Assembly: GCA_964016885.1 (NCBI GenBank)
Contig: OZ024743.1
Span: 81,778,001 to 81,842,000 of the forward strand
Direction of reading: 5' to 3'
From: Eledone cirrhosa
Lineage: Eukaryota
Length of the DNA stretch: 64,000 bases
Made by a program: the position numbers and the translations under genes. Shown here piece by piece: positions 2,085 through 51,824 of this stretch. Under the pieces are notes generated by a model that was not told the DNA's origin, did not search any database, and saw nothing but the letters and a program-made list of their open reading frames with translations. Numbering within the stretch: the stretch's first letter is position 1; every line of letters starts with the position of its first letter.

Positions 2085-2745
2085 AGCGAGTAAGTGAACA
2101 AAGAAAATTTACAAAACTAGTTCCGAAACACGAGACAAAAAAGCGAGACTAAAGGATCTCTAATTGCAGCACATGAGCAAAGCCTCCCCACCAGTAACTA
2201 CCTAAGATATGTAATGAAGCAGAACACAGTAACTGTAAAATATGTGGTGATGGAGAAAAAAACAATTAACCACATTATCTCTGGCTGCCCAATCTTAGCC
2301 AAAAAATAAATATATCCAGACATGATAAGAATTGCGATTTACAGACATTGGAATTCATGCCAACACCATGAAATAATAATACAACGCTGTACAAACATAC
2401 ACAAGGACAGCAACTATATTCTGGGTTACATCAATACGCCCATACTGGGAGATCAACGTTAACTGACCGTATAGCCAAAGTTCACAAACATTGTCTTTAC
2501 TAAGGCATGTAACCGCACAGATGACAATATACCCTTCAATGAAAGGGATAAATTATCTAAATATAAAGATGTTGCGGTAGATATAACGATTTAAATAATA
2601 GTAGAGGCTCTGGGAATGATAACAAAGCAAAGAGAGATACATAACCAAAACCCCAGAGATATATAGATATGAGCACTACTAGGTGCTGGATATACCCCAG
2701 AGATATATAGAAAATAGCACTAGGTACTGGATATACTACAGAGAT
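2085..2745 (+). mobile_element. R4/Dong-clade non-LTR retrotransposon, C-terminal CCHC and restriction-like endonuclease remnant
   Basis: Frameshifted translation SETKGSLIAAHEQSLPTSNY...CKICGDGEKTINHIISGCPILAKK..RHD...DDNIPFNERDKLSKYKD...IIVEALGMI...KIALGT, the typical R4/Dong ORF end. Confidence 0.8.
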
Positions 2746-5326
2746 ATATAGATATAAGCACTACTAGGTGCTGGATATACCCCAGAGATATATAGAAAAT
2801 AGCACTAGGTACTGGATATACCCCAGAGATATATAGATATTAGCACTACTAGGTACTGGATATACCGCAGAGATATATAGATATAAGCACTACTAGGTAC
2901 TGGATATACCCCAGAGATATATAGATATAAGCACTACTAGGTACTGGATATACCCCAGAGATATATAGATATTAGCACTACTAGGTACTGGATATACCCC
3001 AGAGATATATAGATATTAGCACTAGGTACTGGATATACCCCAGAGATATATAGATATTAGCACTACTAGGTACTGGATATACCCCAGAGATATATAGATA
3101 TTAGCACTACTAGGTACTGGATATACCGCAGAGATATATAGATATTAGCACTAGGTACTGGATATACCCCAGAGATATATAGATATTAGCACTACTAGGT
3201 ACTGGATATACCCCAGATATATATAGATATTAGCACTACTAGGTACTGGATATACCCCAGAGATATATAGATATTAGCACTACTAGGTACTGGATATACC
3301 CCAGAGATATATAGATATAAGCACTACTAGGTACTGGATATACCCCAGAGATATATAGATATAAGCACTACTAGGTACTGGATATACCCCAGAGATATAT
3401 AGATATAAGCACTACTAGGTACTAGATATACCCCAGAGATATATAGATATTAGCACTACTAGGGACTGGATATAACCCAGAGATATATAGATATTAGCAC
3501 TACTAGGTACTGGATATACCCCAGAGATATATAGATATTAGCACTTCGAGGGACTGGATATACCCCAGAGATATATAGATATTAGCACTACTAGGTACTG
3601 GATATACCCTAGAGATATATAGATATTAGCACTACTAGGTACTGGATATACCCCAGAGATATATAGATATTAGCACTACTAGGTACTGGATATACCCCAG
3701 AGATATATAGATATTAGCACTACTAGGTACTGGATATACCCCAGAGATATATAGATATAAGCACTACTAGGTACTTGATATACCCCAGAGATATATAGAT
3801 ATAAGCACTACTAGGTACTGGATATACCCCAGAGATATATAGATATAAGCACTACTAGGTACTGGATATACCCCAGAGATATATAGATATAAGCACTACT
3901 AGGTACTGGATATACCCCAGAGATATATAGATATTAGCACTACTAGAGACTGGATATACCCCAGAGATATATAGATATATGCACTACTAGGTACTTGATA
4001 TACCCCAGAGATATATAGATATAAGCACTACTAGGTACTGGAGATACCCCAGAGATATATAGATATAAGCACTACTAGGTACTGGATATACCCCAGAGAT
4101 ATATAGATATAAGCACTACTAGGTACAGGATATACCCCAGAGATATATAGATATTAGCACTACTAGGTATTGGATATACCCCAGAGATATATAGATATTA
4201 GCACTAATAGGTACTGGATATACCCCAGAGATATATAGATATTAGCACTACTAGGTACTTGATATACCCCAGAGATATATAGATATTAGCACTACTAGGT
4301 ACTGGATATACCCAGAGAGATATAGATATTAGCACTACTAGGTACTGGATATACCCCAGAGATATATAGATATTAGCACTACTAGGTACTGGATATACCC
4401 CAGAGATATATAGATATTAGCACTACTAGGTACTGGATATACCCCAGAGATATATAGATATAAGCACTACTAGGTACTGGATATACCCCAGAGATATATA
4501 GATATAAGCACTACTAGGTACTGGATATACCCCAGAGATATATAGATATTAGCACTACTAGGTACTGGATATACCCCAGAGATATATAGATATAAGCACT
4601 ACTAGGTACTGGATATACCCCAGAGATATATAGATATAAGCACTACTAGGTACTGGATATACCCCAGAGATATATAGATATTAGCACTACTAGGTACTGG
4701 ATATACCCCAGACATATATAGATATAAGCACTACTAGGTACTGGATATACCCCAGAGATATATAGATATAAGCACTACTAGGTACTGGATATACCCCAGA
4801 GATATATAGATATTAGCACTACTAGGTACTGGATATACCCCAGAGATATATAGATATTAGCACTACTAGGTACTGGATATACCCCAGACATATATAGATA
4901 TAAGCACTACTAGGGACTGGATATACCCCAGAGATATATAGATATTAGCACTACTAGGTACTGGATATACCCCAGAGATATATAGATATAAGCACTACTT
5001 GGTACTGGATATACCCCAGAGATATATAGATATTAGCACTACTTGGGACTGGATATACCCCAGAGATATATAGATATTAGCACTACTAGGTACTGGATAT
5101 ACCCCAGAGATATATAGATATAAGCACTACTAGGGACTGGATATACCCCAGAGATATATAGATATAAGCACTACTTGGTACTGGATATACCCCAGAGATA
5201 TATAGATATAAGCACTACTAGGTACTGGATATACCCCAGAGATATATAGATATAAGCACTACTAGGGACTGGATATATCCCAGAGATATATAGATATTAG
5301 CACTACTAGGTACTGGATATACCCCA
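2648..5326 (+). repeat. 44-bp minisatellite, about 60 copies
   Basis: Unit ATACCCCAGAGATATATAGATAT(A/T)AGCACTACTAGGTACTGGAT; period 44 (GCACTACTAG at 2887 and 2931). Confidence 0.97.
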
Positions 5327-5447: not shown

Positions 5448-7538
5448 TGTATTGTACTGTATTGTCCTGTATTGTCCTGTGTTGTCCTGTATTGTCCTGT
5501 GTTGTCCTGTATTGTCCTGTATTGTCCTGTATTGTCCTGTGTTGTCCTGTATTGTCCTGTGTTGTCCTGTATTATCCTGTATTGTCCTGTGAAGTCCTGT
5601 GTTGTCCTGTATTGTCCTGTATTGCCCTGTGTTGTCCTGTATTGTCCTGTGTTGTCCTGCGTTGTCCTGTATTGCCCTGTGTTGTCCTGTGTTGTCCTGT
5701 GTTGTCCTGTGTTGTCCTGTATTTTCCTGTATTGTCCTGTATTGTCCTGTGTTGTCCTGTATTGTCCTGTATTGTCATGTATTGTCCTGTGTTGTCCTGT
5801 ATTGTCCTGTGTTGTCCTGTATTATCCTGTATTGTCCTGTGTTGTCCTGTATTCTCCTGTGTTGTCCTGTGTTGTCCTGTGTTGTCCTGTGTTGTCCTGT
5901 ATTATCCTGTATTGTCCTATGTTGTCCTGTATTGTCATGTGTTGTCCTGTATTATCCTGTATTGTCCTGTGTTGTCCTGTATTCTCTTGTGTTGTCCTGT
6001 GTTGTCCTGTAGTGTCCTGTATTGTCCTGTGTTGTCCTGTGTTGTCCTGTGTTGTCCTGTATTGTCCTGTGTTTTCCAGTATTGTCCTGTATTGTCCTGT
6101 GTTGTCCTGTATTCTCCTGTGTTGTCCTGTGTTGTCCTGTGTTGTCCTGTATTGTCCTGTGTTGTCCTGTGTTCTCTTGTGTTGTCCTGTGTTGTCCTGT
6201 ATTGTCCTGTGTTGTCCTGTATTGTCCTGTGTTGTTCTGTATTGTCCTGTATTGCCCTGTATTGTCCGGTGTTGTCCTGTATTGTTCTGTATTGTCCTGT
6301 GTTGTCCTGTGTTGTCCTGTGTTGTCCTGTATTATCCTGTATTGTCCTGTGTTGTCCTGTATTGTCCTGTGTTGTCCTGTATTGTCCTGTGTTGTCCTGT
6401 ATTCTCCTGTATTCTCCTGTGTTGTCCTGTATTGTCCTGTGTTGTCCTGTATTATCCTGTATTGTCCTGTGTTGTCCTGTATTGTCCTGTGTTGTCCTGT
6501 ATTGTCCTGTGTTGTCCTGTATTATCCTGTATTGTCCTATGTCGTCCTGTATTGTCATGTGTTGTCCTGTATTATCCTGTATTGTCCTGTGTTGTCCTGT
6601 ATTATCCTGTATTGTCCTGTGTTGTCCTGTATTCTCTTGTGTTGTCCTGTGTTTTCCTGTATTGTCCTGTATTGTCCTGTGTCGTCCTGTGTTGTCCTGT
6701 GTTGTCCTGTATTGTCCTGTGTTTTCCAGTATTGTCCTGTATTGTCCTGTGTTGTCCTGTATTCTCCTGTGTTGTCCTGTGTTGTCCTGTGTTGTCCTGT
6801 ATTGTCCTGTGTTGTCCTGTGTTCTCTTGTGTTGTCCTGTGTTGTCCTGTATTGTCCTGTGTTGTCCTGTATTGTCCTGTGTTGTCCTGTATTGTCCTGT
6901 GTTGTTCTGTATTGTCCTGTATTGCCCTGTATTGTCCGGTGTTGTCCTGTATTGTCCTTATTGTCCTGTGTTGTCCTGTGTTGTCCTGTGTTGTCCTGTA
7001 TTATCCTGTATTGTCCTGTGTTGTCCTGTATTGTCCTGTGTTGTCCTGTATTGTCCTGTGTTGTCCTGTATTCTCCTGTATTCTCCTGTGTTGTCCTGTA
7101 TTGTCCTGTGTTGTCCTGTATTATCCTGTATTGTCCTGTGTTGTCCTGTATTGTCCTGTGTTGTCCTGTATTGTCCTGTGTTGTCCTGTATTCTCCTGTG
7201 TTGTCCTGTATTGTCCTGTATTGTCCTGTATTATCCTGTATTGTCCTGTATTGTCCTGTATTATCCTGTATTGTCCTGTGTTGTCCTATATTGTCCTGTG
7301 TTGTCCTGTATTATCCTGCATTGTCCTGTGTTGTCCTGTATTGCCCTGTATTGTCCTGTATTATCCTGTATTGTCCTGTATTGTCCTGTGTTGTCCTGTA
7401 TTCTCCTGTGTTGTCCTGTATTATTCTGTATTGTCCTGTGTTGTCCTGTATTATCCTGTATTGTCCTGTATTGTCCTATATTGTCCTGTGTTGTCCTGTG
7501 TTGTCCTGTGTTGTCCTGTGTTGTCCTGTGTTGTCCTT
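5448..7538 (+). repeat. 10-bp minisatellite (RTTGTCCTGT), about 200 copies, inside a probable Tx1-type 3' UTR fragment (5412-7581) flanked by (ATT)n
   Basis: Unit directly visible. The distal flank CCCTTATGGTAAATAAAGAAAG resembles the Tx1 3' end CCCCTGTGGCAAATAAAGAAAG at 19900-19925 (-). Confidence 0.9.
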
Positions 7539-15917: not shown

Positions 15918-15952
<35 letters not shown>

Positions 15953-15979
15953 AACCACAGACCCTCCATCTCAACTCTA

Positions 15980-16015
15980 CTTTTGAAAAGCAGAAAAACT
16001 GCGAAACCGGTAAAG
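15980..16015 (+). ncRNA. Degenerate type I hammerhead ribozyme
   Basis: CTT-TTGAAAA(core C3 and G8 mutated)-GCAG aaaaa CTGC-GAAA-CCGG-TA-AAG, followed by AATAAA, in an (AT)n-flanked island. Confidence 0.5.
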
Positions 16016-16073
16016 GAACCAAATAAATATATAGAGATATTTTTAAATAAGACTCCAGTTGCATTTTCTATTT

Positions 16074-16156
<83 letters not shown>

Positions 16157-16450
16157 TATGTATGTATGTATACGTACATACATATATGTATACAGACGTA
16201 CAGTAGTATGTATATATATATACATACATGCACACATATATATGCACGTATCGGTTTACCGAACATTTATTATAATGCTCGGTGTGTTTGTTTGTAAACA
16301 AACAAACAGCCCGAATTACGCCGTACATTCTATTCCATTTATCGTTTTCGGTGTGCCCGGCCGACTGAACTCATTCGATATGCAAATTAGGCTGCTCAGA
16401 CGTTAATATGCATAAGGAAAGTATATACTTTCAGACGTTCAACCATCTGG

Positions 16451-16509
16451 CAGGAAGGTATACGATGCTGACGATAGCTAATAAGCTTGAAACTAGTACA
16501 TCCTTCCTG
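16451..16509 (+). ncRNA. Type I hammerhead ribozyme, copy 1
   Basis: CAGGAAG gtatac GATG-CTGACGA-T AGC taataa GCT T-GAAA-CTAG-TA-CATC CTTCCTG; bulged stem I, palindromic stem III (ACTAGT), predicted cleavage after 16498. Confidence 0.8.
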
Positions 16510-16900
16510 TGTCAGTGTTGAACAAAAAGGTGACGTGTTTGGCTAAACATTGTACGGCGTAATTCGGGCTGTTTGTTTGTTTACAAACAAACAAACCGAG
16601 CATTATAATAAATGTTCGGTAAACCGATACGTGCATATATATATATGTGTGCATGTATGTATATATATATACATATTACTGTACGTCTGTATACATATAT
16701 GTATGTACGTATACATACATACATACTTACATTTAAGTAAGTGCCGTACTAAGAGTGAGAAATTAAATTTCGTTTCATTCTTTTCCATTTATCGTTTTCG
16801 GTGTGCCCGGCCGACTGAACTCACTCGATATGCACATTAGGCTGCTCAGCCGTTAATATGCATAATAAAAATATATACTTTCAGACGTTCAACCATCTGG

Positions 16901-16959
16901 CAGGAAGGTATACGATGCTGACGATAGCTAATAAGCTTGAAACTAGTACATCGTTCCTG
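16901..16959 (+). ncRNA. Type I hammerhead ribozyme, copy 2
   Basis: Same motif exactly 450 bp downstream; stem I ACGATG/CATCGT; predicted cleavage after 16948. Confidence 0.8.
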
Positions 16960-17233
16960 TGTCAGTGTTGAACAAAAAGGTGACGTGTTTGGCTAAACAT
17001 TGTACGGCTTAATTCGGGCTTTGTTTACAAACAAACAAACCGAGCATTATAATAAATGCTCGGTAAACCGATACGTGCATATATATATGTGTGCATGTAT
17101 GTATATATATATATACATATTACTGTACGTCTGTATACATATATGTATGTACGCATACATACATACATACTCTAATTTAAGTAACTGCCGTACTAAGAGT
17201 GAGAAATGAAATTTCGTTTCATTCTATTCCATT

Positions 17234-17312
<79 letters not shown>

Positions 17313-17420
17313 GAAAATTTCAGAGGGGTTAAACATTTTCCAATTACCCACTCTACTACCCTAAGTATTGAGTACTCTGGTGCGTTATGGTCCATCTTGT
17401 TCCTTACCACACCTCCTTCG

Positions 17421-17507
<87 letters not shown>

Positions 17508-38736: not shown

Positions 38737-39010
38737 TCCCTATAGCTTGAGGGAAGTTCCCTTCCCAATGCGTTGTTGTTGCCCATATAGCTAGAGGAAG
38801 GTCCCGGTCCTGAGGTGTCTACATGTCCCGGGGAAGTCCCTATATCTTCAGGGAAGTTCCCATCCCAAAGTGTTGTTATTGTTCATATAGCTTGAGGAAG
38901 GTCCGGGCCTAGAGTGTCTACATGTCCCGGAGAAGTCCCTATAGCTTGAGGGAAGTTCCCCTCCCAGTGTGTTGCTATTGTCCATATAACTTGAGGTGTC
39001 TACATGTCCC
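38737..39010. repeat. ~99-bp tandem triplication at the end of the GIY-YIG ORF
   Basis: GTCCCTATAGCTTGAGGGAAGTTCCC recurs at about 38737, 38837 and 38935. Confidence 0.8.
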
Positions 39011-39345
39011 GAACAAGTCAGTTCTGAGGTTTATCAGGCTGCTTCCACCGCTGAGTATCTCGAGGGTCTCGCTCAGACATAGCTTGCAGATGCCAGATCC
39101 CCTTTTATCAGGTGGTACTTTCCTGATTTGGGACCAGGCCAGAGAGTACGGGGTCCTGTCCAGCTTGAGCTTCCAGATCAGTTCGGAAAGAGCCGTACTT
39201 TTCCTTTTGTCCTCCCTGTTAAAGGAATGGCGATGATTATACCATCGGTCCTTAAAGCTCGTTGATGTGGCTCCTATGTAAACGTGTTCAGAGTTGGGGG
39301 TTTTTACTCTACATCCGTATATTAAGTTCTTCCTTAATTTGTATT
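38975..39345 (-). mobile_element. Penelope-like element GIY-YIG endonuclease fragment
   Basis: NLIYGCRV...VYIGAT..FKDRWYNHRHSF...STALSELIWKLK...CKLCLSE..I...LINLRTDLFGTCRH; the upstream RT is replaced by a satellite. Confidence 0.88.
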
Positions 39346-40756
39346 CTACCAATACAATAGAATGTAAGGTATGAAACTCTCTACTAATACAATATAAGGT
39401 ATGAAACTCTCTACCAATACAATGTAAGGTATGAAACTCTCTACCAATACAATGTAAGGTATGAAACTCTCTACCAATACAATATAAGGTATGAAACTCT
39501 CTACCAATAGGATGTAAGGTATGAAACTCTCTACCAATAGAATGTAAGGTATGACACTCTCTACTAATACAATGTAAGGTATCAAACTCTCTACCAATAC
39601 AATATAAGGTATGAAACTCTCTACTAATAGAATGTATGGTATGAAACTCTCTACCAATAGAATGTAAGCTATGAAACTCTCTACCAATAGAATGTAAGGT
39701 ATGAAACTCTCTACCAATAGAATGTAGGGTATGAAACTCTCTACTAATAGAATGTAAGGTATGAAACTCTCTACCTATAGAATGTAAGGTATGAAACTCT
39801 CTACCAGTAGAATGTTAGGTATGAAACTCTCTACCAATAGGATGTAAGGTATGAAACTCTCTACCAATACAATGTAAGGTATCAAACTCTCTACCAATAG
39901 AATGTAAGCTATGAAACTCTCTACCAATACAATGTAAGGTATGAAACTCTCTACCAATACAATGTATGGTATGAAACTCTCTACCAATACAATGTAAGGT
40001 ATGAAAATCTCTACCAATAGAATGTATGGTATGAAACTCTCTACCAATAGAATGTAAGGTATGAAAATCTCTACTAATAGAATGTATGGTATGAAACTCT
40101 CTACCAATAGAATTTAAGATATGAAACTCTCTACCAATAGAATGTATGGTATGAAACTCTCTACCAATAGAATTTAAGATATGAAACTCTCTACCAATAG
40201 AATGTATGGTATGAAACTCTCTACCAATAGAATTTAAGATATGAAACTCTCTACCAATAGAATGTAAGGTATGAAACTCTCTACCAATAGAATGTAAGGT
40301 ATGAAACTCTTTACCAATACAATGTACGGTTTGAAACTCTCTACCAATAGAATGTAAGGTATGAAACTCTCTACCAATAAAATGTAAGGTATGAAACTCT
40401 CTACCAATAGAATGTAAGGTATGAAACTCTCTACAATAAGGTATGAAACTCTCTACTAATAGAATGTATGGTATGAAATTCTCTACCAATAGAATGTAAG
40501 GTATGAAACTCTCTACTAATAGAATGTATGGTATGAAACTCTCTACCAATAAATACAATGTATGGTATGAAACTCTCTACTAATAGAATGTATGGTATGA
40601 AACTCTCTACCAATAGAATGTATGGTATGAAACTCTCTACCAATAGAATGTAAGGTATGAAACTCTCTACTAATAGAATGTATGGTATGAAACTCTCTAC
40701 CAATAGAATGTAAGGTATGAAACTCTCTACCAATAGAATGTATGGTATGAACTCTC
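39346..40756. repeat. 30-bp minisatellite, about 47 copies
   Basis: Unit AATGTAAGGTATGAAACTCTCTACCAATAG. Confidence 0.96.
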
Positions 40757-41004
40757 TTAGGTCAACAACCCATCTGTGGTCTGTATCGGCCACCTTGAGT
40801 CAGTGATTTCCTGTTAGGTCAAACCATAACACTATACATAGAAGGCACGTCTTTTGAACCATTCTTCAGCAACTCTGTTATATTGCTTACACTTTTTCTC
40901 TTGTCCATTAATTACTGTATTTTATGCAAAATATAATTTGAGTATACTATTAGCAGGCAGCGAAATGGCTGAGTCGTTATAACGTCATATAGAATGTTTT
41001 GCAG

Positions 41005-42509: not shown

Positions 42510-42600
42510 GTTGTAGTTAGGACGTTCCTGTTCCACGGTCACGTGGACGAGAGTTCGATTCCCGGTACTGCGTTGTGTCTTTAACACACCTTATTTCACG
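42510..42600 (+). mobile_element. SINE family B head running directly into the 28-bp satellite
   Basis: B-box GTTCGATTCC at 42553-42562, then CGTTGTGTCTTTAACACACCTTATTTCACG. Confidence 0.7.
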
Positions 42601-45600
42601 TTATGTCTTTAAGTCACTTTATTTCACGTTCTTTCTTTAAGACACCTTATTTCACGTTGTGTCTTTAAGATACCTTATTTCACGTTATGTCTTTAACACA
42701 CCTTATTTCACGTTATGTCTTTAACACACCTTATTTCAGGTTATGTCTTTAAGACACTTTATTTCACGTTAATTCTTTAACACACCTTATTTCACATTGT
42801 GACTTTAAGACACTTTATTTCACGTTATGTCTTTAACACACCTTATTTCACATGGTGTCTTTAAGATACCTTATATCACGTTATGTCTTTAACACACCTT
42901 ATTTCACGTTGTGTCTTTAAGACACCTTATTTCAGGTTATGTCTTTAAGACACCTTATTTCAGGTTATGTCTTTAAGACACATTATTTCACGTTGTGTCT
43001 TTAAGACACCTTATTTCACGTTGTGTCTTTCAGTCAGCTTATTTCACATTATGTCTTTAACACGCCTTATTTCACGTTATGTCTTTAAGACACCTTATTT
43101 GACGTTATGTCTTCAAGACACCTTATTTCACGTTATGTCTGTAAGACACCTTATTTCACGTTGTGTCTTTAAGACACCTTATTTCATGTTATCTCTTTAA
43201 CACACCTTATTTCAGATTATGTCTTTAAGACACCTTATTTCACGTTATGTATTTAACACACCTTATTTCACGTTGTGCCTTTAAGTCACCTTATTTCACT
43301 TTATGTCTTTAACACACCTTATTTCACGTTATGTATTTAAGACACCTTATTTCACGTTATGTTTTTAAGACACCTTATTTCAGGTTGTGTCTTTAAGACA
43401 CCTTATTTCACGTTATCTCTTTAACACACCTTATTTCAGGTTATGTCTTTAAGACACCTTATTTCACGTTATGTATTTAACACACCTTATTTCACGTTAT
43501 GCCTTTAACAGACATTATTTCACGTTATGTCTTTAACACACCTCATTTGACGTTATGGCTTTAAGAAACCTTATTTCACGTTGTGTTTTAAGACACCTTA
43601 TTTCACGTTGTGTCTTTCAGTCAGCTTATTTCACATTATGTCTTTAACACGCCTTATTTCACGTTATGTCTTTAAGACACCTTATTTGACGTTATGTCTT
43701 CAAGACACCTTATTTCACGTTATGTCTGTAAGACACCTTATTTCACGTTGTGTCTTTAAGACACCTTATTTCATGTTATCTCTTTAACACACCTTATTTC
43801 AGGTTATGTCTTTAAGACACCTTATTTCACGTTATGTATTTAACACACCTTATTTCACGTTGTGTCTTTAAGTCACCTTATTTCACTTTATGTCTTTAAC
43901 ACACCTTATTTCACGTTATGTCTTTAAGACACCTTATTTCACGTTATGTTTTTAAGACACCTTATTTCACGTTGTGTCTTTAAGACACCTTATTTCACGG
44001 TATCTCTTTAACACACCTTATTTCAGGTTATGTCTTTAAGACACCTTATTTCACGTTATGTATTTAACACACCTTATTTCACGTTATGCCTTTAACAGAC
44101 ATTATTTCACGTTATGTCTTTAACACACCTTATTTGACGTTATGTCTTTAAGAAACCTTATTTCACGTTGTGTCTTTAAGACACCTTATTTCACGTTGTG
44201 TCTTTAAGCCAACTTGTTTCACGTTATGTCTTTAACACACCTTATTTCACGTTGTTTTTTAACACAACTTATTTCACGTTGTGTCTTTAAGTCACCTTAT
44301 ATCACGTTATGTCGTTAAGACAACTTATTTCACGTTACGTCTTTAACACACCTTGTTTCACGTTATGTCTTTAACACACCTGATTTCACGTTATGTCTTT
44401 AACACACCTTGTTTCACGTTATGTTTTAAGACACCTTATTTCACGTTGTATCTTTAACACACCTTATATCACGTTATGTCTTTAAGACAACTTATTTCAC
44501 GTTACGTCTTTAACAGACCTTGTTTCACGTTATGTCTTTAACACACCTTATTTCACGTTATGTCTTTAACACACCTTGTTCAACGTTATGTCTTTAAGAC
44601 ATCATATTTCACGTTGTGTCTTTAACACCCGTTATTTCATGTTATGTCTTTAACACACCTTATTTCACGTTATGTCTTTAACACACCTTATTTCACGTTA
44701 TGTCTTTAACACTCCTTGTTTCACGTTGTGTCTTCAAGACACCTTATTTCACGTTATGTCTTTAAGACACCTTATTTCACGTTGTGTCTTTAAGACACCT
44801 TATTTCACGTTATCTCTTTAACACACCTTATTTCAGGTTATGTCTTTAAGACACCTTATTTCACGTTATGTCTTTAACACACCTTTTTTCACTTTATGAC
44901 TTTAACACACCTTATTTCACGTTATTTCTTTAAGAAAGCCTTATTTCACGTTATGTCTTTAAGGCACCTTATTTCACGTTTTGTCTTTAAGACACCTTAT
45001 TTCACGTTATGTCTTTGACACCTTATTTCACGTTATGTCTTTAACATACCTTGTTTCACGTTATATCTTTAAGACACATTATTTCACAAGCTTTCCAGCA
45101 TAGTTACGTTCCTTTACGATCTAAGTTCAAATCCCGCCGAGGTTCACTTTGCCTTTCATCTTTACGGGGTCGATAAGATAACTTACACTGGGTAATTGTT
45201 TGCACTGGGTAATTGCTGGCCTTGTGACTAAAGTAGAAGCAGTTATGTCTTTAACACACCTTATTTCACGTTATGTCTTGAAGACACCTTATTTCACGTT
45301 ATGTCTTTAACCCACCTTATTTCACGTTATGTCTTTAAGACACTTTATCTCAGGTTGTGTCTTTAAGACAACTTCTTTCACGTTACTTCTTTAACACACC
45401 TTATTTCATGTTATGTCTTTAACACACCTTATTTCACGTTATATCTTTAACACACCTTATGTCACGTTATGTCTTTAACTCACCTTTTTTCACATTATGA
45501 CTTTAACACACCTTATTTCACGTTCTGTCTTTAAGTCACCTTATTTCACGTTCTGTCTTTAAGTCACCTTATTTCACGTTATATCTTTAAGACATCTTAT

Positions 45601-48600
45601 TTCACGTTATGTCTTTAACACACCTTATTTCACGTTATGTCTTTAACACACCTTATTTCACGTTATGCCTTTAAGACACATTATTTCACGTTATGTCTTT
45701 GACACCTTATTTCACGTTATGTCTTTAACACACTTTATTTCACGTTATATCTTTAAGACACATTATTTCACATGCTTTCCAGCATAGTTACCTCCCTTTA
45801 CGATCTGAGTTCAAATCCCGCCGAGTTTGACTTTGCCTCTCATCCTTACGGGGTCGATAAGATAAATTACCAGTAATGCACTGGGTTTTTGCTGGCCTTG
45901 TGCCTAAAGTAGAAGCAGTTATGTCTTTAACGTTATTGTTTCTTTAAGATACGTTATTTCACGTTGTCCCTTTGACACACCTTATTAGACGTCTTTAAAC
46001 ACTCCTTATTTCACGTTGTGTCTTTAAGTCACCTTATTTCAGGTTATGTCTTTAAGACATCTTATTTCACGTCATGTCTTTAAACACTTTATTTCACATA
46101 TTGCTTTAACACACCTTATTTCACGTTATGTTTTTAAGACAACTTATTTCACGTTGTGTCTTTAAGACACATTTTTTCACGTTATGTCTTTACCACACCT
46201 TATTTCACGTTGTCTTTAAGACACCTTATTTAACGTTCTGTCTTTAACACACCTTATTTCACGTTATGTCTTTAACACACCTTATTTCACATTATGTATT
46301 TAAGACACCTTATTTCACGCTATGTCTTTTAAGACACCTTATTTCACGTTGTCTCTTTGACACACCTTATTTCACCGTGCGTCTTTAAGTCACCCTATAT
46401 CAGGTTATGTCTTTAAGACTTCTTATTTGACGTCATGACTTTAAGACACCTTATTTCCTATTGTGTCTTTAACAAACCTTATTTCACGTTATGTCTTTAA
46501 AACACCTTATTTCACGTTGTGTCTTTAACACACCTTATTTCACGTTGTCTCTTTAACACACTTTATTTCACGTTGTCTCTTTGACACACCTTATTTCACG
46601 TCTGTAAACACTCCTTATTTCACGTTGTGTCTTTAAGTCACCTTATTTCAGGTTATGTCTTTAAGACATCTTATTTCACGTCATGTCTTTAAACACTTTA
46701 TTTCACATAATGCTTTAACACACCTTATTTCACGTTATGTTTTTAAGACAACTTATTTCACGTTGTGTCTTTAAGACACCTTATTTCACGTTTCTTTTAA
46801 CACACTTTATTTCACGTTATATCTTTAAGACACCTTATTTCAAGTTATGTCTTTAGGACATGTTATTTCACGTTCCGTCTTTAAGATACCTTATTTCACG
46901 TTCTGTCTTTAAGTCACCGTAATTCACGTTCTATCTTTAAGACACCTTATTTCATGTTATGTCTTTAAGCACCTTATTTCACGTAGTGTCTTTAACACAC
47001 CTTATTTCACGTTTTGTCTTTAAGACACCTTATTTCACGTTTTGTCTTTAAGACACCTTATTTCACGTTATATCTTTAAGACACCTTATTTCACGTTCTG
47101 TCTTTAAGTCACATTGTTTCACGTTATGTCTTTAAGACACCTTATTTCACGTTGTGTCTTTAAGTCACCTTATTTCACGTTATCTCTTTAAGACACCTTA
47201 TTTCACGTTATGTATTTAAGACACATTATTTCACGTTATGTCTTTAAGAGACCTTATTTCACGTTCTGTCTTTAACACACATTATTTCACGTTGTGTTTT
47301 AACACACCTTAATTCACGTTATGTCTTTAAGACACATTTTTTAGCGTTATGTCTTTACCACACCTTATTTCCCGTTGTCTTTAAGACACCTTATTTAACG
47401 TTCTGTCTTTAACACACCTTATTTCACGTTATGTCTTTAACACACCTTATTTCACGTTATGTATTTAAGACACATTATTTCACGTTATGTCTTTTAAGAC
47501 ACCTTATTTCACGTTGTCTCTTTGACACACCTTATTTCACCGTGCGTCTTTAAGTCACCCTATATCAGGTTATGTCTTTAAGACATCTTATTTGACGTCA
47601 TGACTTTAAGACACCTTATTTCCTATTGTGTCTTTAACAAACCTTATTTCACGTTATGTCTTTAAAACACCTTATTTCACGTTGTGTCTTTAACACACCT
47701 TATTTCACGTTATAACTTTAAGACACATTATTTCACAAGCTTTCCAGCATAGTTACGTTCCTTTACGATCTAAGTTCAAATCCCGCCGAGGTTCACTTTG
47801 CCTTTCATCTTTACGGGGTCGATAAGATAACTTACACTGGGTAATTGTTTGCACTGGGTAATTGCTGGCCTTGTGACTAAAGTAGAAGCAGTTATGTCTT
47901 TAACACACCTTATTTCACGTTATGTCTTGAAGACACCTTATTTCACGTTATGTCTTTAACCCACCTTATTTCACGTTATGTCTTTAAGACACTTTATCTC
48001 AGGTTGTGTCTTTAAGACAACTTCTTTCACGTTACTTCTTTAACACACCTTATTTCATGTTATGTCTTTAACACACCTTATTTCACGTTATATCTTTAAC
48101 ACACCTTATGTCACGTTATGTCTTTAACTCACCTTTTTTCACATTATGACTTTAACACACCTTATTTCACGTTCTGTCTTTAAGTCACCTTATTTCACGT
48201 TCTGTCTTTAAGTCACCTTATTTCACGTTATATCTTTAAGACATCTTATTTCACGTTATGTCTTTAACACACCTTATTTCACGTTATGTCTTTAACACAC
48301 CTTATTTCACGTTATGCCTTTAAGACACATTATTTCACGTTATGTCTTTGACACCTTATTTCACGTTATGTCTTTAACACACTTTATTTCACGTTATATC
48401 TTTAAGACACATTATTTCACATGCTTTCCAGCATAGTTACCTCCCTTTACGATCTGAGTTCAAATCCCGCCGAGTTTGACTTTGCCTCTCATCCTTACGG
48501 GGTCGATAAGATAAATTACCAGTAATGCACTGGGTTTTTGCTGGCCTTGTGCCTAAAGTAGAAGCAGTTATGTCTTTAACGTTATTGTTCCTTTAAGATA

Positions 48601-51600
48601 CGTTATTTCACGTTGTCCCTTTGACACACCTTATTACACGTCTTTAAACACTCCTTATTTCACGTTGTGTCTTTAAGTCACCTTATTTCAGGTTATGTCT
48701 TTAAGACATCTTATTTCACGTCATGTCTTTAAACACTTTATTTCACATAATGCTTTAACACACCTTATTTCACGTTATGTTTTTAAGACAACTTATTTCA
48801 CGTTGTGTCTTTAAGACACCTTATTTCACGTTTCTTTTAACACACTTTATTTCACGTTATATCTTTAAGAAACCTTATTTCACGTTATGTCTTTAGGACA
48901 TGTTATTTCACGTTCCGTCTTTAAGACACCTTATTTCACATTCTGTCTTTAAGATACCTTATTTCACGTTCTGTCTTTAAGTCACCGTATTTCACGTTCT
49001 ATCTTTAAGACAACTTATTTCATGTTATGTCTTTAAGCACCTTATTTCACGTAGTGTCTTTAACACACCTTATTTCACGTTTTGTCTTTAAGACACCTTA
49101 TTTCACGTTATATCTTTAAGACACCTTATTTCACGTTCTGTCTTTAAGTCACATTGTTTCACGTTATGTCTTTAAGACACCTTATTTCACGTTGTGTCTT
49201 TAAGTCACCTTATTTCACGTTATCTCTTTAAGACACCTTATTTCACGTTATGTATTTAAGACACATTATTTCACGTTATGTCTTTAAGAGACCTTATTTC
49301 ACGTTCTGTCTTTAACACACATTATTTCACGTTGTGTTTTAACACACCTTAATTCACGTTATGTCTTTAAGACACATTTTTTCACGTTATGTCTTTACCA
49401 CACCTTATTTCACGTTGTCTTTAAGACACCTTATTTAACGTTCTGTCTTTAACACACCTTATTTCACGTTATGTCTTTAACACACCTTATTTCACGTTAT
49501 GTATTTAAGACACATTATTTCACGTTATGTCTTTTAAGACACCTTATTTCACGTTGTCTCTTTGACACACCTTATTTCACCGTGCGTCTTTAAGTCACCC
49601 TATATCAGGTTATGTCTTTAAGACATCTTATTTGACGTCATGACTTTAAGACACCTTATTTCCTATTGTGTCTTTAACAAACCTTATTTCACGTTATGTC
49701 TTTAAAACACCTTATTTCACGTTGTGCCTTTAACACACCTTATTTCACGTTGTCTCTTTAACACACTTTATTTCACGTTGTCTCTTTGACACACCTTATT
49801 TCACGTCTTTAAACACTACTAATTTCACGTTGTGTCTTTAAGTCACCTTACTTCAGGTTATTTCTTTAAGACATCTTACTTCACGTCATGTCTTTAAGAC
49901 ACCTTATTTCACATTCTGTCTTTAAAATACCATATTTCTCGTTCTGTCTTTAAGCACCTTATTTTACGTAGTGTCTTTAACACACCTTATTTCACGTTAT
50001 GTCTTTAAGACACCTTATATCACGTTGTGTCTTTAAGACACCTTATTTCACGTTCTGTCTTTAAGACACCTTATTTCACGTTATATCTTTAAGACACCTT
50101 ATTTCACGTTCTGTCTTTAAGGCACATTATTTCACGTTATGTCTTTAAGACACCTTATTTCACGTTGTGTCTTTAAATTTACCTTCTTTCACGCTATCGC
50201 TTTAAGACACCTTATTTCACGTTATGTCTTTAAGACACCTTACTTCACGTTATTTCTTTAACAGACCTTATTTCACGTTCTGTCTTTAACACACATTATT
50301 TCACGTTGTGTCTTTAACACACCTTATTTCACGTTATGTCTGTAAGACACCTTATTTCACGTTGTCTCTTTAATATACCTTATTTAACGTTATCTCTTTA
50401 ATCTTCCTTATTTCACGTTATGTCTTTAAGCCATCTTATTTCACGTTATGTCTTTAACACATCTTATTTCACGTTCTGTCTTTAAGACACCTTATTTCAA
50501 GTTGTGTCTTTAAGACACCTTATTTCACGTTCTGTCTTTAACACGCCTTATTTCACGTTCTGTCTTTAACACGCCTTATTTCACGTTGTGTCTTTAAGTC
50601 ACCTTATTTCACGTTCTGTCTTTAAGACACCTTATTTCACGTTTTCCCTTTAAGACACCTTTTTTCACGTTATGACTTTAACACACCTTATTTCACGTTA
50701 TGTCGTTAAGACACATTATTTCACGTTATGTCTTTAAGACTCCTTATTTCACGTTTGGTCTTTATGTCACCCTTTTTCAGGTTATGTCTTTAAGACATCT
50801 TATTTCACGTCATGTCTTTAACACACCTTATTTCACGTTATGTTTTTAAGACAACTTATTTCACGTTGTGTCTTTAAGACACCTTATTTCACGTTGTGTT
50901 TTAACACACCTTATTTCACGTTATGTCTTTAAAACCCCTTATTGCACCTTCTGTCTTTAAGACACCTTATTTCACGTTCTGTCTTTAAGACCCCTTATTT
51001 CACGTTGTGTCTTTAAGACACCTTATTTCACGTTCTGTCTTTAACACACCTTATTTCACGTTGTGTCTTTAAGTCACCTTATTTCACGTTCTGTCTTTAA
51101 GACACCTTATTTCACGTTTTGCCTTTAAGACACCTTTTTTCACGTTATGACTTTAACACACCTTATTTCACGTTATGTCGTTAAGACACATTATTTCACG
51201 TTATGTCTTTAAGACTCCTTATTTCACGTTGTCTTTAAGTCACCCTATTTCAGGTTATGTCTTTAAGACATCTTATTTCACGTCATGTCTTTAACACACC
51301 TTATTTCACGTTATGTTTTTAAGACAACTTATTTCACGTTGTGTCTTTAAGACAACTTATTTCACGTTGTGTTTTAACACACCTTATTTCACGTTATGTC
51401 TTTAAGACCCCTTATTGCACCTTTTGTCTTTAAGACACCTTATTTCACGTTATGTCTTTAAGACACCTTATTTCACGTTGTCTCTTTAACACACCTTATT
51501 TCACGTTATGTCTTTAAGACACATTATTTCACGTTATATCTTTAAGACACCTTATTTCACGTTGTCTCTTTAAGACACCTTATTTCACGTTATGTCTTTA

Positions 51601-51822
51601 AGACACATTATTTCACGTTGTCTCTTTAACACACCTTATTTCACGTTATGACTTTAAGACACCTTATTTCACGTTATGTCTTTAAGACACCTTATTTCAC
51701 GTTCTGTCTTTTAGTCACACTATTTCACGTTATGTCTTTAAACACCTTATTTCACATTGTCTCTTTAAGACACCTTATTTCACGTTATGTCTTTAAGACA
51801 CCTTATTTCACGTTATGTCTTT
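42571..51822 (+). repeat. 28-bp satellite array (about 9.2 kb, roughly 300 units) with higher-order duplications and four embedded SINE A patches
   Basis: Unit GTTATGTCTTTAA(G/C)ACACCTTATTTCAC; 587-bp and 2649-bp periods; patches at about 45087-45247, 45771-45922, 47736-47896 and 48420-48571. Confidence 0.97.
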
Positions 51823-51824
51823 AT

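Follow-up and report, generated by a model that had tools for sequence, protein, structure and literature searches.

The locus considered here raises two questions: to what class of element do two tandem hammerhead-bearing units preceded by an inverted partial unit belong, and by what enzyme, and from what form of RNA, were they inserted? It lies in a 64,000-nt stretch of Eledone cirrhosa DNA (hereafter the window; GenBank assembly GCA_964016885.1, contig OZ024743.1, positions 81,778,001 to 81,842,000 of the forward strand), and its features are listed in Table 1 in window coordinates. A preliminary description had read the module as a candidate retrozyme, that is, the source of a self-cleaved and possibly circular RNA.

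The locus consists, in order, of a (TA)n tract, an inverted arm, two units in direct orientation, 16 further bases (to 17235) and a second (TA)n tract. The two units align with 94% identity over 469 nt, the reading frames that overlap the unit are of low complexity only, and its layout is not of the LTR type. By alignment, the inverted arm is an inverted copy of 16551-16729, with about 96% identity, and is nearer to unit 1. This confirms the arrangement given in the preliminary description, namely two tandem units of about 450 bp, each with a complete hammerhead core, an inverted arm of 175 bp and (TA)n flanks. The extent assigned to the module holds for the units, the arm and the flanks, but the ends of the insertion are not unit boundaries; they are two 3' ends that are fixed throughout the family, the short end (S) on the left (16153) and the tail end (T) on the right (17235).

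Table 1. Features of the hammerhead-bearing insertion and its immediate flanks
Feature	Positions	Strand	Remarks
3' end of the L220/L221 PLE family	15949..16077	+	ORF-bearing family; outside the insertion; its terminal TA tract took the insertion
(TA)n tract, left side of target	16078..16152	.	from the sequence
Inverted arm	16153..16327	-	175 bp; unit positions 226-404; outer end is the family short (S) 3' end
Head-to-head arm junction	16326..16327	.	2-nt overlap (microhomology)
Tandem unit 1	16326..16775	+	450 nt, non-coding, subfamily A
Type I hammerhead 1	16437..16523	+	predicted cut after 16498; stem I has a mismatch private to this copy (16503)
Predicted cut-to-cut monomer	16499..16948	+	450 nt
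Internal copy of 56-nt tail	16736..16791	+	between S site (16729-16735) and T site (16791); inferred RT start-site pair
Tandem unit 2	16776..17219	+	444 nt
Type I hammerhead 2, intact	16887..16973	+	predicted cut after 16948
Terminal 56-nt tail	17180..17235	+	17235 is the family tail (T) 3' end
(TA)n tract, right side of target	17236..17309	.	from the sequence

The type I hammerhead core is complete in both units: stem II has 4 bp and is closed by U.U, stem III is a palindrome of 2 bp (ACTAGT), and stem I is bulged and extends into a GTTCAAC/GTTGAAC helix. The pair of type I hammerheads reported earlier therefore stands as far as the cores are concerned, but stem I of unit 1 carries a mismatch private to that copy. 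The helices fit the canonical build as PMC4209133 describes it, where hammerheads of that build are said to be inefficient at cleavage in monomeric form and efficient as dimers. From the palindrome and this literature we argue that self-cleavage would likely take place in a dimer formed through stem III. The 96-nt ribozyme pieces fold with z scores of -3.7 (hammerhead 1) and -3.0 (hammerhead 2). An Rfam search gave no match at the gathering score; a 131-nt piece with hammerhead 2 gave a weak match to Hammerhead_HH9 (17.6 bits, E 0.035, below the cut-off of 52). The miRNA matches that Rfam gave were rejected as TA-repeat noise.

For covariation, 20 ribozymes (15 distinct) were chosen across subfamilies. 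Stem cells were paired in 95.5% of cases and two pairs were altered on both sides; since the rows are related sequences selected by their core, this conservation of pairing is modest support. Differences between subfamilies in the stems mostly preserve pairing. In a variant table from three runs of unstated kind (one sample, contigs), no variant at 10% or more was found in the core outside loop II; since about 2 were expected, this does not count as evidence. When folded as a circle, the predicted monomer pairs 67% of its nucleotides (z -7.9 relative to 30 shuffled sequences); the predicted monomer circles of subfamilies A and B are 67-71% paired with z about -7.9, to which TA-rich palindromes contribute. 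An octamer motif, ATGCAAAT, lies at 16380-16387, 118 nt ahead of the cut, is followed by a TATA-like run and recurs in the reference units of subfamilies A and C; it may be an internal promoter, although its spacing is atypical for snRNA genes.

The shared 31-nt ribozyme core has 24,749 exact matches in the 3.0-Gb genome, the 39-nt version found in the window (subfamily A) has 1,916, and subfamily B, whose unit measures about 422 nt, has 7,802; the reversed-pattern control gave 0 in each case, and exact-match counts are lower bounds. Together with subfamily C, whose units measure 466-538 nt, there are at least three subfamilies. The genome count that the preliminary description had proposed as a check thus reveals a high-copy family rather than a sequence with no other copies. 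The copies are dispersed over many contigs and range from monomers to multimers, mostly with 1-3 units in two-armed, head-to-head insertions. Subfamily A, with 5.5% divergence between insertions, is aged, and the window copy is an aged member of the family, whereas in some arrays of B and C the units show 0-1 differences from one another.

We examined 173 distinct loci (200 fetched, 27 overlaps dropped; individual loci are given L numbers), comprising the top BLAST hits, the core matches listed first for contig C1, matches to a tail pattern and hand-picked B and C loci. This sample is non-random and mostly from contig C1, and each locus was read for 1.5-4 kb on each side. Some loci contain higher-order arrays of units, with a period of two in L172 and L173 and of four in L267/L268, as if the retrozyme were seeding satellite-like DNA. 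In both period-2 arrays, alternate ribozymes carry a lesion. The lesion string of L173 has three matches, at one other locus and in a different haplotype; that of L172 has 20 matches, and none of the 16 other matches has the L172 haplotype. Given this distribution and the period of four in L267/L268, an origin of the period-2 arrays from dimer circles was rejected as unsupported.

The 5' ends of the copies are ragged; the 3' ends are fixed at two positions, S and T, that lie 56 nt apart. Among the 275 arms of at least 100 nt, 122 end at S, 121 at T and 32 elsewhere. A TA run follows 216 of the 243 arms that end at S or T, as against 18% of background positions. The insertion ends merge into (TA)n, so that a target-site duplication is unreadable there. 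In subfamily A, S and T lie about 232 and 288 nt past the ribozyme cut; since neither is at the cut, copying starts inside the RNA. A GTAAGT donor coincides with the S site in subfamilies A and C and has a different position in B; an intron reading was dropped. Where two arms meet head to head, overlaps of 1-4 nt are the commonest class.

The two ends are distributed between arms by a simple rule, one short and one tail. There were 105 head-to-head pairs, in 29 of which at least one end was unclassified; the remaining 76 comprised 71 S+T, 2 S+S and 3 T+T (binomial p 3e-16 against 0.5). The proportion of S+T is similar in each sampling set (15/16, 25/27, 2/2, 12/13, 10/11 and 7/7). As a control we used an ORF-bearing Penelope-like element (PLE) family, L226/L237, in which the GIY-YIG domain scores above and RVT_1 below the Pfam cut-off; over 28 loci, 16 of 17 pairs were S+T, the tail measured about 35 nt and the flanks were TA. 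The tail of PLEs is described as often present at a single end (PMC8557442), and we found no published count of S/T pairing in PLE insertions in the literature. In vitro, the protein of the anole PLE PAc cuts and extends both target strands, and reverse transcription begins at two internal positions, between which the tail lies (PMC11167929).

The mechanism that we propose would proceed as follows. A tandem copy would be transcribed by read-through, two hammerheads would cleave, likely as a dimer via the palindromic stem III, and ligation would give a circle of 420-500 nt. At a (TA)n target, a PLE protein dimer would cut both strands, of which one would prime at S and the other at T, 56 nt apart and likely on the same RNA. 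Each cDNA would travel a variable distance round the unit, and the two cDNA ends would then join head to head by microhomology. Tail arms of 52-63 nt that stop at S (6 of 88) are as expected if both primers sit on one RNA, with a Poisson p of about 0.001 against neighbouring lengths for a length window chosen after the data were seen. Taken as a complete chain, in which a non-LTR retrozyme is copied into (TA)n by a PLE enzyme from a self-cut and re-ligated circular RNA, this account is in our judgment probable, if only by a little. A broader and more tentative proposal, which we hold somewhat short of probable, is that PLE integration is dual priming: one dimer with one RNA would split two start sites between the strands of a double-strand cut, giving the inverted arms and the one-sided tail, while the retrozyme would offer a ribozyme-made circle that both RTs lap, a process of which about 25,000 copies would be the record.

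The evidence on the template comes from the cut site and from comparisons of units. Of the 275 arms, 3 have a 5' end at most about 6 nt from the predicted cut, as compared with about 8 expected if uniform, although core-selected loci are biased against such arms. Spans across the predicted cut have the exact length in 278 of 280 cases, and in 27 of 28 in loci that were not core-selected. With no pile-up of 5' ends and no scar at the cut, the template would be a circle or an uncut multimer, and a cleaved linear monomer copied with template jumps is unlikely. In subfamily B, units of one insertion diverge by 1.6% when they lie in the same arm and by 1.3% when they lie in opposite arms, as against 4.1% between insertions, and the arms are closer to each other than the median of other copies in 13 of 15 insertions. 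In subfamily A the effect is weak; the corresponding values are 5.2% and 4.8% against the background of 5.5%, with opposite arms (4.8%) closer in 18 of 28. In L171 every unit in both arms has one private haplotype, whereas in L111 and L179 arms or units differ in haplotype; one template per event is therefore common but not universal.

The strongest competitor of the circle is an uncut, linear read-through multimer copied by the PLE enzyme, in which case the ribozyme would be dispensable or act later and either template switching or duplication of the local DNA would renew the arrays. The cut site fits this template equally well; ribozyme mutants of the anole PLE insert normally in vitro, with uncut RNA as the main substrate (PMC11167929); insertions of mixed haplotype exist; and the arrays of period two and four are amplified at the DNA level. 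However, 5' truncation can only shorten a linear template, yet young arms of 4-5 units are near-identical across both inverted arms (L171, L246). The pairing of stem I has also been kept in three subfamilies, and retrozymes of coral, mussel and axolotl are reported to accumulate as circles (PMC7229834). We consider this alternative possible but rather unlikely. In favour of the circle, then, are L171, where the multi-unit arms that flank one junction are near-identical, the strongly paired predicted circles and the circles of other metazoans. Against the full chain are the barely raised identity within insertions of subfamily A, the mixed haplotypes of L111 and L179, the thin covariation, a tail-only peak that consists of six arms, and a partner PLE not found among 14 PLE 3' regions. 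Local DNA amplification, as in L267/L268, can also make tandem units alike, uncut RNA is the favoured substrate in PMC11167929, and in Xenopus eight of nine predicted retrozyme dimers gave no cleavage (bioRxiv 10.64898/2026.07.22.740005).

The part of the proposal that concerns the enzyme stands more firmly. The genome contains many PLE families (150 scored matches among 10,596 candidates in a GIY-YIG search), and intact PLE frames are present, such as one of 938 aa in L220. A PLE protein match was found near 41 of the 173 loci with no join at a fixed position, and in none of the 173 did a same-strand PLE ORF reach an arm without a TA tract between them; where a same-strand match lay upstream (10 arms), a TA tract separated every one from the arm. 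Since no PLE ORF runs into the unit in these 173 loci, the repeat is not an ordinary pLTR, a reading that the preliminary description had tied to constant attachment to an RT ORF; within the distance read, the unit is non-autonomous. The tail, the inverted arms and the (TA)n targets are common to the retrozyme family and the ORF-bearing PLE family. The earlier suggestion of a non-autonomous family mobilised by Penelope RT is thus supported by the 24,749 cores, the absence of an attached ORF in the 173 loci, the PLE-type tail, the inverted arms and the targets, and we regard this family-level reading as very probable. The L220-family 3' end on the left flank of the window copy shows nesting in shared TA tracts and not descent. 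It has a hammerhead-like fold with a core off consensus and a different palindrome (ACCGGT) as stem III; similar hammerhead-like variants sit after the ORF in L214, L226, L236 and L238.

A search of flanking PLEs and of 50 GIY-YIG loci found no partner PLE, and the best of 84 alignments of three units with 14 PLE 3' regions (z 3.6) was AT-rich and unconvincing. The L226/L237 family has, near its short end, a 14-nt string in common with the end of the retrozyme tail; a 12-nt part of this string also occurs inside the L220 ORF, and the link is therefore a lead only. With many PLE families in the genome and about 14 3' regions compared, the PLE-type ends could also belong to 5'-truncated pLTR debris of an unsampled autonomous PLE. 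In such debris the tail should not lead straight into the next unit, as it does here, nor would arrays of several ORF-free units and the lack of an attached ORF in 173 loci be expected. A tail departing from both normal continuations at two tested bases has 40 matches genome-wide, and the 27 distinct ones examined are within the 173 loci. We therefore consider this origin improbable.

The inverted arm has another possible source, a fold-back copy of the first cDNA that is resolved by the endonuclease at S, in line with the reading of the tail given in PMC8557442. In the window, the direct arm does contain the whole span of the inverted arm, whose sequence is nearest to that of unit 1, and one arm could be contained in the other in 49 of the 71 S+T pairs. 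In the other 22 neither arm fits inside the other, which fold-back of one cDNA cannot explain; as a general rule it is contradicted, and we judge it very unlikely. A satellite or MITE-like repeat spread at the DNA level with a chance ribozyme look-alike would account for the inverted ends, the TA flanks, some long higher-order arrays and the lack of an Rfam match at the cut-off, but it is hardly credible in view of the dispersal on many contigs, the ragged 5' ends, the unequal arms, the two fixed 3' ends and an S+T rule in common with an RT-bearing family.

On every testable feature the hammerhead repeat groups with the non-LTR retrozymes, and it behaves like them. As described for coral, mussel and axolotl in PMC7229834, such elements are tandem, non-coding, AT-rich units of 150-450 nt with a type I hammerhead, a self-paired predicted circle and thousands of copies, in genomes that also contain PLEs; axolotl HHR_Amex2 even has the U.U at the base of stem II. 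The differences are that circles are reported there, whereas the Eledone family is known from genomic DNA with the circle predicted, and that the Eledone copies have (TA)n flanks instead of readable target duplications. Two-armed, head-to-head insertions of 1-3 units with two fixed 3' ends are a feature of Eledone that is not described in the available portions of PMC7229834.

With the pLTR and tail of PLEs (PMC8557442; PAc, PMC11167929) the family shares partial tandems, an inverted 5'-truncated arm, a frequently one-ended tail, two internal RT start sites, AT-rich targets and a hammerhead with palindromic stem III. In contrast, the Eledone unit has no ORF, its tail is 56 nt rather than 30-40 nt, and a parent family was not found among the 14 PLE 3' regions. 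PLE hammerheads are described as minimal, with a long helix II and a short helix I (PMC4209133), whereas those of Eledone are canonical, with a 4-bp stem II, a long bulged stem I and a 2-bp stem III. The MRC1-type elements of Chlamys (PMC8557442) are likewise non-autonomous PLE derivatives in multicopy head-to-tail insertions, but their 3' sequence is common to them and an autonomous family, and no canonical hammerheads are reported in that group. Xenopus retrozymes have also been claimed to depend on PLEs as non-autonomous derivatives (bioRxiv 10.64898/2026.07.22.740005), from their co-occurrence with PLEs and their similarity to pLTRs across 35 genomes, mostly of vertebrates, with tandems ascribed to local amplification; in Eledone the link is the anatomy of the insertions, with no convincing pLTR similarity to the 14 PLE 3' regions.

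The retrozyme class and its link to PLEs are thus already in print (PMC7229834; bioRxiv 10.64898/2026.07.22.740005). The Eledone family itself was not found in the main texts of the literature, cephalopod and tail-aware descriptions included, and a repeat-library name may already exist. The added value is a quantified one-short-one-tail rule common to a retrozyme and an ORF-bearing PLE, which links retrozymes with PLE enzymes through the anatomy of their insertions and not through co-occurrence. Both the enzyme that moves animal retrozymes and the origin of the inverted arms and one-sided tail of PLEs are called open in the available portions of this literature. The unit, a very high-copy substrate of 450 nt, offers a small RNA for a direct test of dual priming and rolling-circle copying.

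Several other repeats were observed in the sampled loci and in the window. Other PLE families with their own hammerheads, nested at one another's TA ends, are present in L102, L108, L223 and L244, and in some of these hammerheads a U.U pair underlies stem II or stem III is palindromic. An 853-bp inverted duplication in L107 (4773-7896) consists of a PLE endonuclease end and part of a retrozyme unit that had inserted inside that PLE. In L230 (4800-4960), a different TA-flanked repeat has a terminal hairpin that resembles one inside the retrozyme tail. An unnamed short repeat lies between two TA tracts at 17310-17421 in the window and has matches in more than 40 fetched loci, often beside retrozyme insertions. 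Elsewhere in the window, a PLE endonuclease-region fragment (38996-39352, minus strand) adjoins a 30-bp satellite at 39355-40757, and long satellite arrays with 44-bp, 10-bp-based and 28-bp units occupy 2650-5326, 5448-7537 and 42571-51823.
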